Shown here piece after piece: positions 1,543-53,346 of a stretch of DNA of 64,000 nt. How positions within the stretch are numbered: position 1 is the stretch's first letter; every line of letters begins with the position of its first letter. The DNA lies in the sequence record MT478991.1; one strand, written 5' to 3'. The stretch comes from Escherichia phage vB_EcoM_011D4. A program made the position numbers and the translations under genes. The notes under the pieces were generated by a model. It worked only from the letters and a program-made list of their open reading frames with translations. It did no database searches and had not been told where the DNA came from.

Positions 1543-1745
1543 TTACATTTAGGGCAATGCGGTTCTTTAATATAATACCCGTCTGTCTTTGGAACACTAA
1601 CAGGAGCGGTTTTTATATTGTATTCAGTGAAACAACGAAAACAAGTTACGTTTTCTACAGACTGACGTTTCACCCAATCACCGGAATAGAGATCATTTTT
1701 ATTTGTCATATTCAACCACCACAATATTGATATCTGGAGTAGCAA
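1515..1745 (-). CDS. zinc-ribbon-like small protein, hypothetical
   Basis: 76 aa with CFRC ... CPKCKC paired cysteine motifs. Confidence 0.4.
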   Translation of the reverse strand: MLLQISILWWLNMTNKNDLYSGDWVKRQSVENVTCFRCFTEYNIKTAPVSVPKTDGYYIKEPHCPKCKCRLYWSHL

Positions 1746-2154
1746 TATTAATGATTTCTTCTACACATTCCCACTCAAGGCCACCGATACCGCAACCGAT
1801 TTTAGGAATATAGAAAGGCTGTATAGCACCCTCAAAAACATCATTAAGAGACTCAAATCCTTTCAGGATAGCACCATATTCAGCATTTGGACCCGGTCGG
1901 AATTGGGTATAGAGATTCACCCCGCACCAGTTATAACCATTAACTTGATGCGTCCAGATACTAAACCCACCCAGCTTTTCTACCTTACCGCGAGAAGTTT
2001 GCTTGTCAATCTCTAACGCTTGCGGGAACTCTTTTGCGATATCCGCAGCAATACCAGCGCCCATAGTATGAAAACAATTACAACCATGAATTAAATGACC
2101 GTTTCCTTGTTTAAACAGGGCGATGAGATCGCCCTTTACAGTATCAATAATCAT
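1699..2154 (-). CDS. macrodomain protein, TARG1/OARD1-like (putative ADP-ribose hydrolase)
   Basis: 151 aa; motifs VKGDL ... HGCNCFHTMGAGIA ... F and PKIGCGIGGLEWE resemble the TARG1/C6orf130 macrodomain signature as recalled from memory. Confidence 0.6.
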   Translation of the reverse strand: MIIDTVKGDLIALFKQGNGHLIHGCNCFHTMGAGIAADIAKEFPQALEIDKQTSRGKVEKLGGFSIWTHQVNGYNWCGVNLYTQFRPGPNAEYGAILKGFESLNDVFEGAIQPFYIPKIGCGIGGLEWECVEEIINIATPDINIVVVEYDK

Positions 2155-2169
2155 AATATAAACCTCTCA

Positions 2170-2529
2170 TTAGTCACGGGAAGACAACCCAGCCATAAAA
2201 CGGCTTAACAGTGTGTCGCGATAAGCAAAGCATAATTGCTTATCAGGGGCAGTATCACACAGGTTGCGTTTTGTTTTAGCAAAGCTGGCAATACTCAGAT
2301 CCCATGCTCGATTTTTTCGTTTTTCGTCTCGACCTTGTTTGTATGCTTCATCAAGTTCGAGCGCGATAAAATCACTACACATGTTATCATCATCACAGAA
2401 AGTTTTAATGATCTTTTTGTTGATCTCAAATCCTTTGTATTCAAACTTTGGATAAGGGCGCTCATTACTAGCAAGCGCACCAGCCGAGAACATCATAGCA
2501 ATCATAGCAATTATTGTCAACTTTTTCAT
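2170..2529 (-). CDS. hypothetical secreted protein
   Basis: 119 aa; signal peptide MKKLTIIAMIAMMFSAGALA; several Cys residues. Confidence 0.45.
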   Translation of the reverse strand: MKKLTIIAMIAMMFSAGALASNERPYPKFEYKGFEINKKIIKTFCDDDNMCSDFIALELDEAYKQGRDEKRKNRAWDLSIASFAKTKRNLCDTAPDKQLCFAYRDTLLSRFMAGLSSRD

Positions 2530-2536
2530 ATATTCC

Positions 2537-3127
2537 TCAATAGCGTTTAGTCTTAAGAATGCCTTTACTCTTTAGATGGTTAGCCTTTTTTAGTACGTCA
2601 TCAGCATAACCTAATCCGGCTTTATAGTTCCATCCAGCATTGTAAGAAGCTAGCGCGAGTCGGATATTACCGTTTCGAACATCCAGCCAGTATGCTAACT
2701 CATCCATCGCGTAGAATGCAGAAACCTCGCGATTCATGATAAAGTTGATAGTCTGGCGATCACTCATTTTAACACCGCGCTTTGCATTTTTCGCTTTCAC
2801 CGTTTTAAGGTAATTTTGAAATAATCCATAAGCATGATGATTTTTCTTTGGTGCTAAGTTTGCACCCGCGCTTGATTCTTGCCATGCGATACCCGCCAGG
2901 ATGTGGCCTAAACCCTTTCCGTTATAGCGAATATTCGGATGGTACTTTTTCAACTTACCGCTTTTCTCAAATTGCTCGCCGTATTGATAGGCGAAATGTA
3001 AATTATCTAGTTGGTGTGCTGTAAAGTTGTCTATCGGCGCTTTTTTGATCGGTGCGCTAGTCGATGCGTGTGTAGCACCAACGGCTAGTGACAGACTCAA
3101 TACTATCGCTTTTAGAACTTTTAACAT
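2537..3127 (-). CDS. secreted lytic transglycosylase (SLT domain)
   Basis: 196 aa; signal peptide; SLT-type motifs AWQESS ... YGLFQ ... YNAG. Confidence 0.65.
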   Translation of the reverse strand: MLKVLKAIVLSLSLAVGATHASTSAPIKKAPIDNFTAHQLDNLHFAYQYGEQFEKSGKLKKYHPNIRYNGKGLGHILAGIAWQESSAGANLAPKKNHHAYGLFQNYLKTVKAKNAKRGVKMSDRQTINFIMNREVSAFYAMDELAYWLDVRNGNIRLALASYNAGWNYKAGLGYADDVLKKANHLKSKGILKTKRY

Positions 3128-3212
3128 TAATTTCTCCTGTTTGGCTTAACTTTCTGATTCCATAATATAGCCCTATCACCAGAAAGTCAAGCATTATTTT
3201 AACCAATTTCCA

Positions 3213-3635
3213 TTATTGGTCTACTTTCAAAACAACCGCCGACATTTTACCCGCCAGTCGTTTTGGATTCTCTATAATCATTCGGCAGCATAGACCGTGA
3301 TACGGCTTACCCTCTTCGATTAGATCTACTGTCATCCCGATCCACATGTTACCGTCAGTAATTTCTAATCGATTAGGTCTGTCTTCCATTTTCAGGAAGT
3401 CGAAGATCTCCGGCAAACGAGTTTCTATCTTATTGAATAGTTCCATTGTCTTATGTTCATCGATATGACGATCGGTTAGACGGTCGATCATATGCGGACT
3501 AAAGCGAATGAAAATATACTCACCATAACCATCATTCAAGCACTTTTCTTTGATCTGTGCATTGGTTTTGCGCATTTCGGTTTCGAAGAATCTACGCAGC
3601 TTACTACGGCGAACATGTACGTTAATTGTTTCCAT
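3213..3635 (-). CDS. hypothetical early protein (regB position by synteny; assignment tentative)
   Basis: ORF track gives 3213..3677; an internal Met (METINVHVRRSKLRR) preceded by AAGGA is the likelier start; size and position relative to tk resemble T4 regB but the sequence could not be verified. Confidence 0.4.
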   Translation of the reverse strand: METINVHVRRSKLRRFFETEMRKTNAQIKEKCLNDGYGEYIFIRFSPHMIDRLTDRHIDEHKTMELFNKIETRLPEIFDFLKMEDRPNRLEITDGNMWIGMTVDLIEEGKPYHGLCCRMIIENPKRLAGKMSAVVLKVDQ

Positions 3636-3639
3636 TTTA

Positions 3640-3975
3640 TTATCCTTTCTTAAACAAATTGCGAAGCCAGTATACAAACGGGATTTCTTTAAACTTGAAT
3701 TTCTCGATAGTTAATTCTTTAGTAGCAAGATGAATACCATAAGCATCATGTGTCACGATATGCCATTTTCTATAGTCCAAATGTGAACAACCGTCTGGAT
3801 CTAGGTTAATAAGAGTTTCTCGCTCACTAGGATTATTTTTCCACAATTTTGTAATAGGATCGCACATAATTCGACCTAGCGTACCATGAATAATCTCACA
3901 ACGGTAAAGTTTTCCAGCAGTGAGATAGGCGCACCCGTCATAGTCGGTATAAACAAACACTTCTTTAACACTCAT
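3640..3975 (-). CDS. hypothetical protein, member of tandem paralog family (DGCSHL motif)
   Basis: 111 aa; shares (D/G)GCSHL and aromatic-rich motifs with the next two ORFs; own early promoter upstream. Confidence 0.5.
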   Translation of the reverse strand: MSVKEVFVYTDYDGCAYLTAGKLYRCEIIHGTLGRIMCDPITKLWKNNPSERETLINLDPDGCSHLDYRKWHIVTHDAYGIHLATKELTIEKFKFKEIPFVYWLRNLFKKG

Positions 3976-4003
3976 TTTAATACTCCTTTGTTGTTTCGAT
4001 GGG

Positions 4004-51041: not shown

Positions 51042-51073
51042 TAAAAACAAAAAAGCCACCCCGAAGGATGGCT
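51042..51073 (-). terminator. rho-independent terminator after hoc
   Basis: hairpin agccaccccgaaggatggct with a minus-strand U-run. Confidence 0.5.
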
Positions 51074-51084
51074 GATAGATTTCA

Positions 51085-52299
51085 TTAAGCAGGATGCGTT
51101 TCACGAATGCGTAGAACTCGCTCTAACGTATCTCGGTCCAGTTTATGTAACTCTTTGGAATGATACATGAAACCATTGCGAGATTCCATGCAAGTGCAAT
51201 CACTATATTTTTCTTCCGCTGCCGCGATCGTCTCCAGATCTTTGGCGTACTTGCTGGTAGAATAAACTTCTCGGTCACGCCACTCTAACCCAGCCTCATT
51301 GAATTTAACAATCTCGTCAAATACCCACCATCCAATGTAGATAAATGAAGTTTTGCGCCACGGGATCGGGTGTACGTAACGAAACATTTTAACAACTTCA
51401 ATGGAACATTTTCTGCTTGTACTTGCTGCAACTTCTACTGTTTCATCTTCGATCTGTTGATATAGTTTAGCAACACACCAGAATTTGGCTGTGTCATCGT
51501 AAGTAGCACTCTCTTTGAACAGATGACCGTCTGGCATGATAGAAAATCCTTCCAGTGCTTCGCCGTCCTCACTACCGATTAGAGTCGGTGACGGTTGCCC
51601 TTCGCGCTGCAAATACCAGTTATGTTTGATCGTCAATTCAGGCATACCGCTAGAATCGCCTACAATGTCCTCTGATACAACATAATTAAGTAAGATCTCA
51701 TTACCTAGTGCCACGGTCTTTGATTCCACCACATCCTGATCTACGTTCATTGTTGCCAGCATGATTTTAGTCGATGCGCTATTGGCTGAATTTTCCGACT
51801 CACCCCACACTTTTACAGTATACACGCCGTTTTTATCTGCTGTAAATTCTTGGATTGTAATATCCTGTTTTGTGTCTATAACTTCTTCGCCCTTACTCCA
51901 ACTATAATGTAGTTCATAGTTGTCTGCTGGAGTCTTCCCACCCGAAAATTTTACTGTTGCATGTAATTCTACGTCTTTTTGTGATGATACGTAGAAATGC
52001 GGCGGTTCGGTGATGTTTACGATTAATTCCGCTTCTTCCATGAGGAAAACTTCAGATTCTACTGATGCCATCGTATCGGTATCTTGTACCGTGACTTTAT
52101 AGCTACCAGCATTTTCACTTGTTGCGTCTGCTACAGTTAGCGTAGCTGTGTTATTTTCATGCTGTTGGTCGTCTTTTGTCCATGTATATGTCAAATTGCT
52201 GGGTAATGGTTCGTCACCCGTTACAGTCGCCGTTAAGGTGAAACCATCGCCAGCAAGAAAACATCTTTTGTCAGATTTAATTGATACTGTGAAAGCCAT
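51085..52299 (-). CDS. hoc: highly immunogenic outer capsid protein Hoc
   Basis: 404 aa; N-terminal MAFTVSI, Ig-like repeats, C-terminal YVHPIPWR ... GWWVFDEI ... ESRNGFMYH matching the T4 Hoc capsid-binding region as recalled. Confidence 0.85.
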   Translation of the reverse strand: MAFTVSIKSDKRCFLAGDGFTLTATVTGDEPLPSNLTYTWTKDDQQHENNTATLTVADATSENAGSYKVTVQDTDTMASVESEVFLMEEAELIVNITEPPHFYVSSQKDVELHATVKFSGGKTPADNYELHYSWSKGEEVIDTKQDITIQEFTADKNGVYTVKVWGESENSANSASTKIMLATMNVDQDVVESKTVALGNEILLNYVVSEDIVGDSSGMPELTIKHNWYLQREGQPSPTLIGSEDGEALEGFSIMPDGHLFKESATYDDTAKFWCVAKLYQQIEDETVEVAASTSRKCSIEVVKMFRYVHPIPWRKTSFIYIGWWVFDEIVKFNEAGLEWRDREVYSTSKYAKDLETIAAAEEKYSDCTCMESRNGFMYHSKELHKLDRDTLERVLRIRETHPA

Positions 52300-52468
52300 A
52301 TAAAGCCACTCCCATAGAAAATCCGAATTTAATTAATTGAAATAGTTGATTGTCATCAACCAGATAACCATTGCGAGATTCCAATATATGAGTATTAGAA
52401 TAGTGATGCAACGAGGCCGAAATAGTATCGATCTCGTCTGGGTATTTGTTCTGTTTGATGTAATACAT
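52277..52468 (-). CDS. small protein resembling the Hoc C-terminal segment
   Basis: 63 aa; KYPDEIDTISASLHHYSNTHILESRNGYLV aligns with Hoc KYAKDLETIAAAEEKYSDCTCMESRNGFMYH; overlaps the hoc start by 23 nt. Confidence 0.4.
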   Translation of the reverse strand: MYYIKQNKYPDEIDTISASLHHYSNTHILESRNGYLVDDNQLFQLIKFGFSMGVALYGFHSIN

Positions 52469-52564
52469 TGATTTTGTTAGACATGTAGTATCCTCTTTTT
52501 AATTGCATAACGGAACTACAATTAAAATTATAACAAATATTTCACAACTTTTATCACCCAAAAA

Positions 52565-53290
52565 TTACTTGAGTGTGTGGAATTGGCTATGTTTAGTCTC
52601 TCGCACCTTGACAGACCCATCGCGTTTGATATAATAGATCAGTGACTTGAGGGTGTCGTGTACATACGCGTGCGGGAAACGCTCTGGATACTTCTTCCAA
52701 TCTGGAGTATTAACGATCCAGTCGAAAATCCACCACGGGCAGGAGTAGTAACCACGACCGCCACCGATCAAGCAAATGGTCGGACGGAAGCCAGTAAGAT
52801 CGCAAAATGAATCAGTGTCATGTGCTGGGGAACGATGCTCTGCTTCGTTAGAGAAAATGTTGGCTACCGGAGATTCCACTTTAACTTCCGGTGCTTCTTC
52901 AACATCTGACTTAACTTCTTCGACCACTGGTTCAACTGCTGGAGATTCTTCTTTTGTTTCTTCAATGACGATCTCAGGTTCTTTCATTGCTTCAACCAGA
53001 GACGGATCAACTTCGTCGAATACCACTTTATCATCTGCGGTGTCTGCTGCCAGAATAAGATCGTTAATACTGGTTCCTTCTGCCGGAGTTTCTTCTTCCA
53101 TTTCGGAAGCCAGTTTAGTTAATTCGGTTTCTACGAACTCGATCATGTTCTCTAGGGATAAAGTCTTTTTGACCTTAATATCAAATTGTTTTGCGTAGTC
53201 AGCTAATTCTGTTTTAGCTGTTTTCTGTGCTTCTTTGTCGTCGGACGCCGCAATAGCGCGGAGTTCTTCGAAATATTCTTTATCAAACAT
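52565..53290 (-). CDS. Inh-like capsid-associated protein (putative; T4 inh position)
   Basis: 241 aa; acidic middle; C-terminus carries WWIFDWIV and PHAYVHD motifs resembling Hoc. Confidence 0.4.
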   Translation of the reverse strand: MFDKEYFEELRAIAASDDKEAQKTAKTELADYAKQFDIKVKKTLSLENMIEFVETELTKLASEMEEETPAEGTSINDLILAADTADDKVVFDEVDPSLVEAMKEPEIVIEETKEESPAVEPVVEEVKSDVEEAPEVKVESPVANIFSNEAEHRSPAHDTDSFCDLTGFRPTICLIGGGRGYYSCPWWIFDWIVNTPDWKKYPERFPHAYVHDTLKSLIYYIKRDGSVKVRETKHSQFHTLK

Positions 53291-53317: not shown

Positions 53318-53325
53318 TATAAATA
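53318..53325 (+). promoter_or_regulatory. T4-type late promoter TATAAATA
   Basis: exact TATAAATA about 22 nt upstream of uvsW. Confidence 0.5.
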
Positions 53326-53346
53326 TTTGTATACTGTATTTATTGA

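Follow-up and report, generated by a model that had tools for sequence, protein, structure and literature searches.

A scar left by a second hoc gene and a Hoc-type domain in Inh at the inh–hoc locus of a Krischvirus

Escherichia phage vB_EcoM_011D4 is an RB49/JSE-like Krischvirus, a T4-type coliphage. In the 64,000-nucleotide (nt) stretch of its genome that was analysed (the window; sequence record MT478991.1) the minus strand carries inh (241 amino acids (aa), 52565–53290), a 63-codon open reading frame (ORF63, 52277–52468) and hoc (404 aa, 51085–52299). ORF63 overlaps the start of hoc by 23 nt. The first-pass annotation of this DNA had remarked that pieces of the Hoc capsid-binding region recur in all three genes. 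The three reading frames and the peptides quoted from them are present on the minus strand as described, and the pieces are shared through common ancestry, not chance. The recurrence has two unrelated causes. Taken together the data are very likely best explained if ORF63 is the deletion scar of a second hoc gene, named hoc2 here, and if the C-terminus of Inh is a true and ancient homologue of the capsid-binding domain of Hoc.

The genes inh and hoc match the profiles phrog_1051 and phrog_1149, respectively. The gene uvsW lies divergently on the plus strand. A 2.6-kb region spanning the locus is 96–99% identical to ∼50 Krischvirus genomes (RB49, JSE, Phi1, GEC-3S and others). In T4 the order is the same, with inh followed directly by hoc, and inh also lies between uvsW and hoc in JSE and JK32.

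Hoc provides the reference for what follows. The window protein matches phrog_1149 (‘Hoc-like head decoration’) with E = 5e-82; its residues 1–304 match the crystal structure of RB49 Hoc (3shs_A, E = 2e-186) and residues 299–384 match T4 Hoc (5vf3_Z/8t1x, E = 3e-13). The capsid-binding domain comprises approximately residues 305–404 (51088–51387, minus strand), aligned to residues 284–367 of T4 Hoc, and contains the motifs YVHPIPWR, GWWVFDEIV and ESRNG. In T4 this domain is a four-stranded sheet docked in the capsomer groove with a helix bundle above it. The residues in contact with gp23* are Tyr293, His295, Arg300, Trp309 and Trp310 (where helix 1 begins) and the loop Glu355–Gly359, which lies at the centre of the capsomer and touches all six subunits; Arg357 is paired with Asp313. 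The domain was reported to lack structural relatives in the Protein Data Bank (PDB) (Fokine et al. 2023, PMC10385173). Protein fragments that hold the C-terminal domain of Hoc alone carry no Pfam entry, and in the resources examined no Pfam model seems to exist for it.

ORF63 resembles the last segment of Hoc, as the first-pass annotation had stated (14/39 identities, 26/39 positives, BLASTP E = 3e-8), and matches the C-terminal end of the phrog_1149 profile (positions 1107–1145 of 1150, E = 2.7e-6). A tblastn search finds near-identical copies in Krischviruses, together with matches of 73–80% in JK32 and G2248 that fall under a gene annotated ‘head outer capsid protein’. In JK32, G2248 and Brandy a gene of 2541 nt, encoding a product of 846 aa, is located between inh and hoc; this is hoc2. 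It is kept in six GenBank phages (JK32, Brandy, SSG23, SFHK24, G2248 and UPWr_E1), the alleles of which are 65–100% identical. Hoc2 has several immunoglobulin (Ig) and PKD-like domains (Pfam) and ends in ...RYVHPIPWRRTSFQYQGYWVLDEI...KYPDEIETIAASLHHYSNTHVLESRNGYLVDGTQLF followed by the stop codon, a complete Hoc capsid-binding domain. Both the window Hoc and the Krischvirus Hoc2 thus have the canonical build of Hoc, in which several Ig-like domains in a row precede a C-terminal capsid-binding domain bearing the YVHP, WW and ESRNG motifs. Two Hoc proteins are also encoded by the phages Muldoon and PG7 (Fokine et al. 2023, PMC10385173), and adjacent paired hoc genes are already known in other genera. 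All that the window retains of its second gene, however, is a 5′ stump and a 3′ remnant of 37 codons. Full-text searches of a limited literature library found no description of the Krischvirus hoc2 or of its decay.

The scar can be read at the nucleotide level. By blastn the window corresponds to JK32 minus positions 1612–4001 of the JK32 locus, a difference of 2390 nt that is not a multiple of 3. Identity to JK32 is 95.6% up to nucleotide 32 of hoc2 and 90.5% from 119 nt before the hoc2 stop. Comparison with Brandy gives the same pattern, with both ends of hoc2 present and the middle missing. ORF63 and its flanks are therefore colinear with both ends of the intact gene, as befits a pseudogene remnant. 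Starting at the 5′ end, the first remnant (52449–52498, minus strand) comprises a Shine–Dalgarno sequence AAGAGGA (52497–52491), the ATG at 52484 and the first 11–12 codons (MSNKINVLHQT, where Hoc2 of JK32 and Brandy begins MSDKINILHQT). The deletion junction follows at a CAGAA repeat (∼52453–52449, minus strand), and then the 3′ remnant (52334–52447, minus strand), comprising KYPDEIDTISASLHHYSNTHILESRNGYLVDDNQLF and the former stop codon. The 3′ remnant was delimited by blastn to JK32 and compared with JK32, G2248, Brandy and one IMG locus; in the capsid-binding domain of Hoc2 it corresponds to the final helix and to strands 3 and 4 with the ESRNG loop between them. In the window the former stop codon TAA has become CAA, and the terminator hairpin between hoc2 and hoc, GCCGACCTTCGGGTCGGC, is partly to largely lost. 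An exact-pattern scan of IMG/VR for the hoc2 remnant returned only two contigs.

ORF63 runs across this scar. Codons 1–7 derive from the 5′ end of hoc2 and the junction, read out of frame, codons 8–44 are the last 37 codons of hoc2, and codon 45 is its former stop. The remaining codons, 46–63 (LIKFGFSMGVALYGFHSIN), are the old spacer between hoc2 and hoc, the ribosome-binding site of hoc and the start of hoc. The ATG of ORF63 (52468) comes from ...ATC AATG TAT..., a third-frame reading of the hoc2 5′ stump. The region upstream of this ATG contains no Shine–Dalgarno or other purine-rich ribosome-binding site. The ATG itself falls 16 nt into a different ORF, one with a strong Shine–Dalgarno sequence, the AAGAGGA located 6 nt before the genuine hoc2 ATG. 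From that start the sequence encodes MSNKINVLHQT and then, frameshifted, EQIPRRDRYYFGLVASLF, giving an ORF of 29 codons (52395–52484, minus strand) that is most likely the frame translated, judged from the position of the start signals. It is annotated in JSE as EpJSE_00174, and the annotations of Phi1 (ORF168.1) and Makalu002 include an equivalent of 54 aa. The 63-codon ORF is opened by an ATG that occurs by chance in the stump's third frame, while ribosomes using the real hoc2 start would make the 29-aa frameshifted peptide instead. The scar is annotated inconsistently in GenBank, as ‘hypothetical protein’ entries resembling gp168 of RB49, as ORFan 168.1 in Phi1, as a 30-codon ORF in JSE, or not at all. 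The Phi1 counterpart ORF168.1 has been treated as an ORFan (Arbiol et al. 2010, PMC2839356); the scar explains it as the N-terminus of Hoc2 with a frameshifted tail.

A census of the scar covered 14 deletion-type and 4 intact genomes. The spacer between the stop codon of inh and the start codon of hoc measures 265 nt in the window, JSE, RB49, MIZ3 and seven others, ∼340 nt in Phi1, ECD7 and Makalu002, and ∼2668 nt in intact genomes. The ∼340-nt spacers retain 25 extra N-terminal codons of hoc2 (...EDPVYGSVGHPLLLKIVVSTADFIAE), and the extra 75 nt of the Phi1-type spacer are flanked by CAGAA direct repeats. On the proposed course of events the ancestral Krischvirus locus would have been inh–hoc2–hoc. 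The first step would be an out-of-frame deletion of ∼2.3 kb within hoc2, a state still found in Phi1 and ECD7, and the second a microhomology-mediated deletion of 75 nt between the CAGAA repeats, converting the Phi1-type spacer into the shorter one. The 265-nt form would most simply be such a second deletion of the Phi1-type form. The deletion allele has apparently also changed background. In MIZ3 the inh allele is of the G2248 type (its Inh is 89.7% identical to that of the window) but the 265-nt scar is shared with the window, while Brandy combines a window-type inh (99.2%) with an intact hoc2, a mosaic which suggests that the deletion allele moved by recombination across the locus. One point weighs against this account: the junction of the first deletion is located approximately, not to the nucleotide.

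The events could in principle have run in the opposite direction, with a small ancestral ORF into which the 846-aa hoc2 was later inserted or duplicated in JK32, G2248 and Brandy. The long form is found in just 6 of ∼60 sequenced Krischviruses, as would be expected of a late arrival. Yet the short form holds both ends of hoc2, out of frame, around a truncated half-domain, and the Phi1-type intermediate retains 25 codons more of the N-terminus. The intact alleles have diverged to 65% identity while their domain remains strongly constrained: over the last 111 nt of the gene JK32 and G2248 differ at 21 nucleotides and at no amino acid, so that the capsid-binding domain of intact hoc2 is under strong purifying selection. 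The 65–68% divergence of hoc2 alleles argues against a recent duplication of hoc. Insertion is therefore barely credible, and since the alleles diverge by up to 35% hoc2 is taken to be old and the deletion derived.

The remnant itself shows none of the constraint seen in the intact gene. In four of the 14 deletion-type genomes (Phi1, ECD7, Makalu002 and MIZ3) no ATG stands in frame with the remnant, and the MIZ3 frame has a TAG at codon 6. The polymorphic sites of the 111-nt remnant number 8 nonsynonymous and 2 synonymous, close to what neutrality would give. They include ESRNG to EYRNG in JSE, which strikes an otherwise invariant motif, and KYP to KYQ in Makalu002. The product would moreover be incomplete. 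ORF63 spans only the equivalent of Hoc residues 349–387, without the YVHP and WW segments (strands 1 and 2 and helix 1), and therefore could form neither the four-stranded sheet nor the hydrophobic core. A Pfam scan of ORF63 gave no match, and neither the complete capsid-binding domain nor the Ig-like domain or other payload of a Hoc family member is found in it.

The first-pass annotation had proposed that ORF63 is a paralogue of the last Hoc segment, possibly a competitor or regulator of Hoc decoration. A functional, translated mini-protein carrying half a Hoc domain could draw on the retention of the ESRNG loop (the central capsomer contacts in T4 Hoc), on a PHROG family of its own (phrog_32100) and on a frame that is open in 10 of the 14 deletion-type genomes. 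That last count, and the fact that several annotators call ORF63 a gene, also weigh against the reading of ORF63 as a scar, as does the small sample of polymorphism, which is 10 sites. However, ORF63 has no Shine–Dalgarno sequence, its last 18 residues are translated spacer and ribosome-binding site, and the conserved frame and purifying selection expected of an expressed gene were not found. The mini-protein is highly improbable; ORF63 appears to evolve without constraint, and as a 3′ remnant of hoc2 it very probably makes no functional protein.

A non-coding role can be considered in addition to the origin as a scar, in which the scar is kept for an effect in cis on hoc expression, the 5′ leader of hoc2 and the loss of its terminator and stop codon allowing transcription from inh, and possibly ribosomes, to run on into hoc. 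The former hoc2 stop codon is lost in all 14 deletion-type genomes and the terminator hairpin is partly deleted in each of the six spacers inspected. Between inh and hoc the window has no predicted terminator. T4-type late promoters close to the consensus (AATAAATA and TACAAATA) are found on the minus strand upstream of inh only (53324–53344), and a consensus scan found no minus-strand late promoter between inh and hoc; hoc is therefore probably co-transcribed with inh. Against this, hoc has its own GGGAG ribosome-binding site, the shared features of the scar would equally fit a single recent origin of the deletion allele, and the proposal is purely inferential, built on simple consensus scans. 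A retained function in cis is accordingly considered unlikely, though less so than the alternatives above, and it would leave the derivation of ORF63 from hoc2 unchanged.

Unlike ORF63, the 241-aa protein is a full member of a known family. It matches phrog_1051 (‘minor head protein inhibitor of protease’) with E = 8.6e-77 over its whole length (residues 1–241 against positions 1–229 of 229) and lies in the expected position between uvsW and hoc. It is 43% identical to T4 Inh, which occupies the same place, and is not itself different from it; T4 Inh is annotated in databases as a minor head protein and inhibitor of the gp21 prohead protease. By tblastn Inh is found in 1422 phage records, with the last ∼80 residues best conserved. 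The protein is built from a conserved helical N-terminus, an acidic linker (31% Asp + Glu over residues 60–150 in the window) and a C-terminal domain of approximately residues 160–241 (52568–52813, minus strand), in which PWWIFDWI, DWK, TLKSL and VRETKHS (family consensus IRETRNS) can be recognized. Pfam PF26098 and PF26097 are listed on every homologue of the window Inh in the protein database; a Pfam-A scan of the window Inh gave no match, with a model set that did not include these two entries.

The resemblance of WWIFDWIV in Inh to WWVFDEIV in Hoc that had been noticed is marginal in pairwise comparison, where BLASTP finds these 8 residues alone (E = 0.054), but becomes domain-long when profiles are compared. 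On the Inh side 85 diverse representatives were collected, giving a C-terminal alignment of 86 sequences, and on the Hoc side 24 capsid-binding domains were taken from IMG/VR loci (32 used as source) and Krischvirus genomes. With hhalign the two profiles align over 62 columns with 96.8% probability, E = 2.2e-10 and a score of 54.9. In 200 column-shuffled controls the mean score was 11.1 (standard deviation 2.7, maximum 23.1), placing the real score ∼16 standard deviations above, and the reversed Inh profile scored 5.9 against Hoc. With the T4 sequences as masters the alignment extends over 79 columns, essentially the whole domain (97.1%, E = 6.8e-11), and an independently built pair of alignments gave 84% and E = 7e-6. 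The matches are reciprocal, reaching 39 bits for Inh sequences under the Hoc hidden Markov model (HMM) and 25.5 bits for Hoc sequences under that of Inh. Among 177,635 distinct PDB sequences T4 Hoc is the sole match of the Inh-family HMM below E = 0.01 (E = 0.0013, the next being E = 0.25), with the Inh profile ...PGYYTLPYWIYDWI...DWK...TLKSLLYYIKRDGSVTIRETRNS aligned to T4 Hoc residues 285–359.

In the T4-mastered alignment the [WY]-W of Inh corresponds to W309/W310 and the Asp of WIxDWI to D313, while DWK corresponds to D324–K326 and R-E-[ST]-R-N-S to Q354–G359. A second resemblance that had been proposed, between PHAYVHD of Inh and YVHPIPWR of Hoc, is not colinear and is due to chance: YVHP precedes the WW motif in Hoc and follows it in Inh, and in the profile alignment PHAYVHD pairs with SKYAKDLE in the third helix of Hoc, not with strand 1. 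A similarity between KYPE of Inh and KYPDE of ORF63 was also considered and is not significant (E = 7.2).

The structure prediction points the same way. An AlphaFold2 model of the C-terminal domain of the window Inh (predicted local distance difference test score, pLDDT, 92.9) has the order strand, helix, helix, strand, strand. Its top Foldseek match in the PDB is the C-terminal domain of T4 Hoc (8t1x_X, template modelling (TM) scores 0.59/0.57 over 84 columns), with all others having TM ≤0.25. Against the BFVD models Hoc comes directly after Inh itself, with a probability of ∼1.0 (phages of Aeromonas, Klebsiella, Acinetobacter, Pseudomonas and Salmonella). The Inh domain is therefore predicted to have the same fold as that of Hoc.

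Several observations weigh against homology. Identity between Inh and Hoc is just 15–16%, the Foldseek E-value in the PDB is 0.36 and not significant alone, and the strand-1 contacts Tyr293, His295 and Arg300 of T4 Hoc are not conserved in Inh. When 1.84 billion representative proteins were searched by phmmer with a single sequence of the Inh C-terminal domain, all 88 matches were Inh, and the link to Hoc therefore needs profiles. Convergence, a short shared motif or chance would be compatible with the low identity and with the 8-residue pairwise match, and PF26097 and PF26098 are not reported on fragments with the Hoc C-terminal domain alone. Such explanations are nevertheless very improbable, given a colinear alignment of 62–79 columns far above its shuffled controls, reciprocal HMM matches, T4 Hoc as the sole PDB match of the profile and dozens of Hoc models matched in BFVD. 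On the strength of the profiles, the last ∼80 residues of Inh are taken, throughout the T4-like phages in general, to be distantly homologous to the capsid-binding domain of Hoc. The relation is ancient and family-wide and is found equally in T4, and so the modular duplication within this locus that had been suggested does not account for it. The idea of a family of capsid-targeted proteins is fair for Hoc, Hoc2 and the C-terminal domain of Inh but does not extend to ORF63. No description of the link between the Inh and Hoc domains was found in full-text searches of the same limited library, and neither the T4 head reviews consulted nor the Hoc structure paper (PMC10385173) mention Inh in this context; the remote homology is real and apparently undescribed.

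The domain in Inh keeps the two tryptophans with which helix 1 begins, the Asp...Arg pair and the E-[ST]-R-N-[SG] loop between the last two strands, and in T4 Hoc these WW, Asp...Arg and loop elements sit on the centre of the gp23* hexamer (PMC10385173). We infer from these sequence features that Inh's C-terminal domain is an anchor for the capsid lattice, related to the one in Hoc. Through it Inh may dock on the lattice of the major capsid protein, which would place its N-terminal and acidic parts beside the prohead protease or the shell. The capsid site or the state of the capsid may differ from those used by Hoc, because the YVHP strand-1 motif is not conserved. Secondary sources moreover list Inh as a head-internal component, and Hoc binds the outside of expanded capsids; this counts against the proposal, and capsid binding by the Inh domain is therefore something that we infer. 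It is tentatively suggested, as a possibility of somewhat less than even weight, that Inh is a capsid-lattice-binding protein whose C-terminal domain docks on gp23 hexamers, either within the prohead or, on a fraction of capsomers, at the site that Hoc uses, tethering the N-terminal and acidic parts so as to modulate the gp21 protease or compete with Hoc.

Reuse of the Hoc capsid-binding domain on other payloads has already been described (PMC10385173). A 511-aa protein of PG7 consists of an N-terminal capsid-binding domain and a GDSL lipase, and phrog_14282, phrog_11091 and phrog_9703 are further examples of such a portable Hoc-type anchor. Inh would be like these in having the domain on a non-Ig payload (the helical N-terminus and acidic linker), but is unlike them in its 15–16% identity, in the absence of the YVHP strand-1 motif and in being regarded as a prohead or internal protein rather than a surface fibre.

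The loop of Inh has a further feature. The nearly invariant pattern [LIV]x[LIV]-R-E-[ST]-R-N-S is present in 72 of the 85 Inh representatives, and the window (52568–52620, minus strand) reads VRETKHS at this position. The cleavage consensus of T4 gp21 resembles the I-x-E motif in this loop, and from its sequence the loop could present a pseudo-substrate to the protease reportedly inhibited by Inh. The N-terminal part of Inh was also considered as a decoy substrate for gp21. The 85 members contain 303 [LI]xE sites where 254 are expected from shuffling, which is not compelling, and the window Inh has 2 where 3.4 are expected.

Other features flank the locus. A terminator hairpin lies 3′ of hoc (51054–51073, minus strand; an 8-bp stem with five G–C pairs, followed by a T-run), and relatives have an annotated terminator at the same place. 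Directly after this hairpin (51073–51054) is a perfect 12/12 sigma-70 promoter, TTGACA-16-TATAAT (51037–51010, minus strand). Mobile PeSL cassettes have been linked to hoc and to further plastic loci (Arbiol et al. 2010, PMC2839356), and the arrangement of hoc terminator and early promoter in the window resembles them. The plus strand (52608–52635) carries another perfect 12/12 sigma-70 promoter, with the TG of an extended −10, antisense within the 3′ end of inh and directed toward uvsW. It overlies the codons that specify the conserved YYIKRDGSV. It may serve as an early antisense promoter or as one for uvsW, or may have arisen as a by-product of the codons used. Ahead of uvsW, also on the plus strand (53318–53325), stands an exact TATAAATA. 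Among close relatives (Skers, KFS-EC, Sf20, JEP8 and Makalu002) hoc has a length of 1203, 1215 or 1227 nt, and in Skers the scar ORF is annotated as 76 codons; indel variation is ongoing around the hoc locus.

ORF63 can be labelled as a recent hoc2 pseudogene remnant, which explains several inconsistent ‘hypothetical protein’ annotations; this part of the result is ordinary. Most sequenced Krischvirus isolates have lost the fibre of eight Ig domains that is Hoc2, and few keep it, and scoring hoc2 as present or absent gives an easy marker for how the capsid surface varies between therapeutic Krischviruses. What is new is a diverged member of the family of Hoc-type capsid-binding domains and not a new kind of system. 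A Hoc-type domain with capsomer-contact motifs in Inh gives a concrete and testable hypothesis for the targeting of Inh to the head, and may offer a second, orthogonal anchor for T4 display platforms. The homology suggests that the adjacent inh and hoc share an origin. If the proposed docking is correct, the long-obscure Inh would gain a testable mechanism, and Hoc and Inh would be two products of one ancient capsid-anchor module, encoded in adjacent genes.

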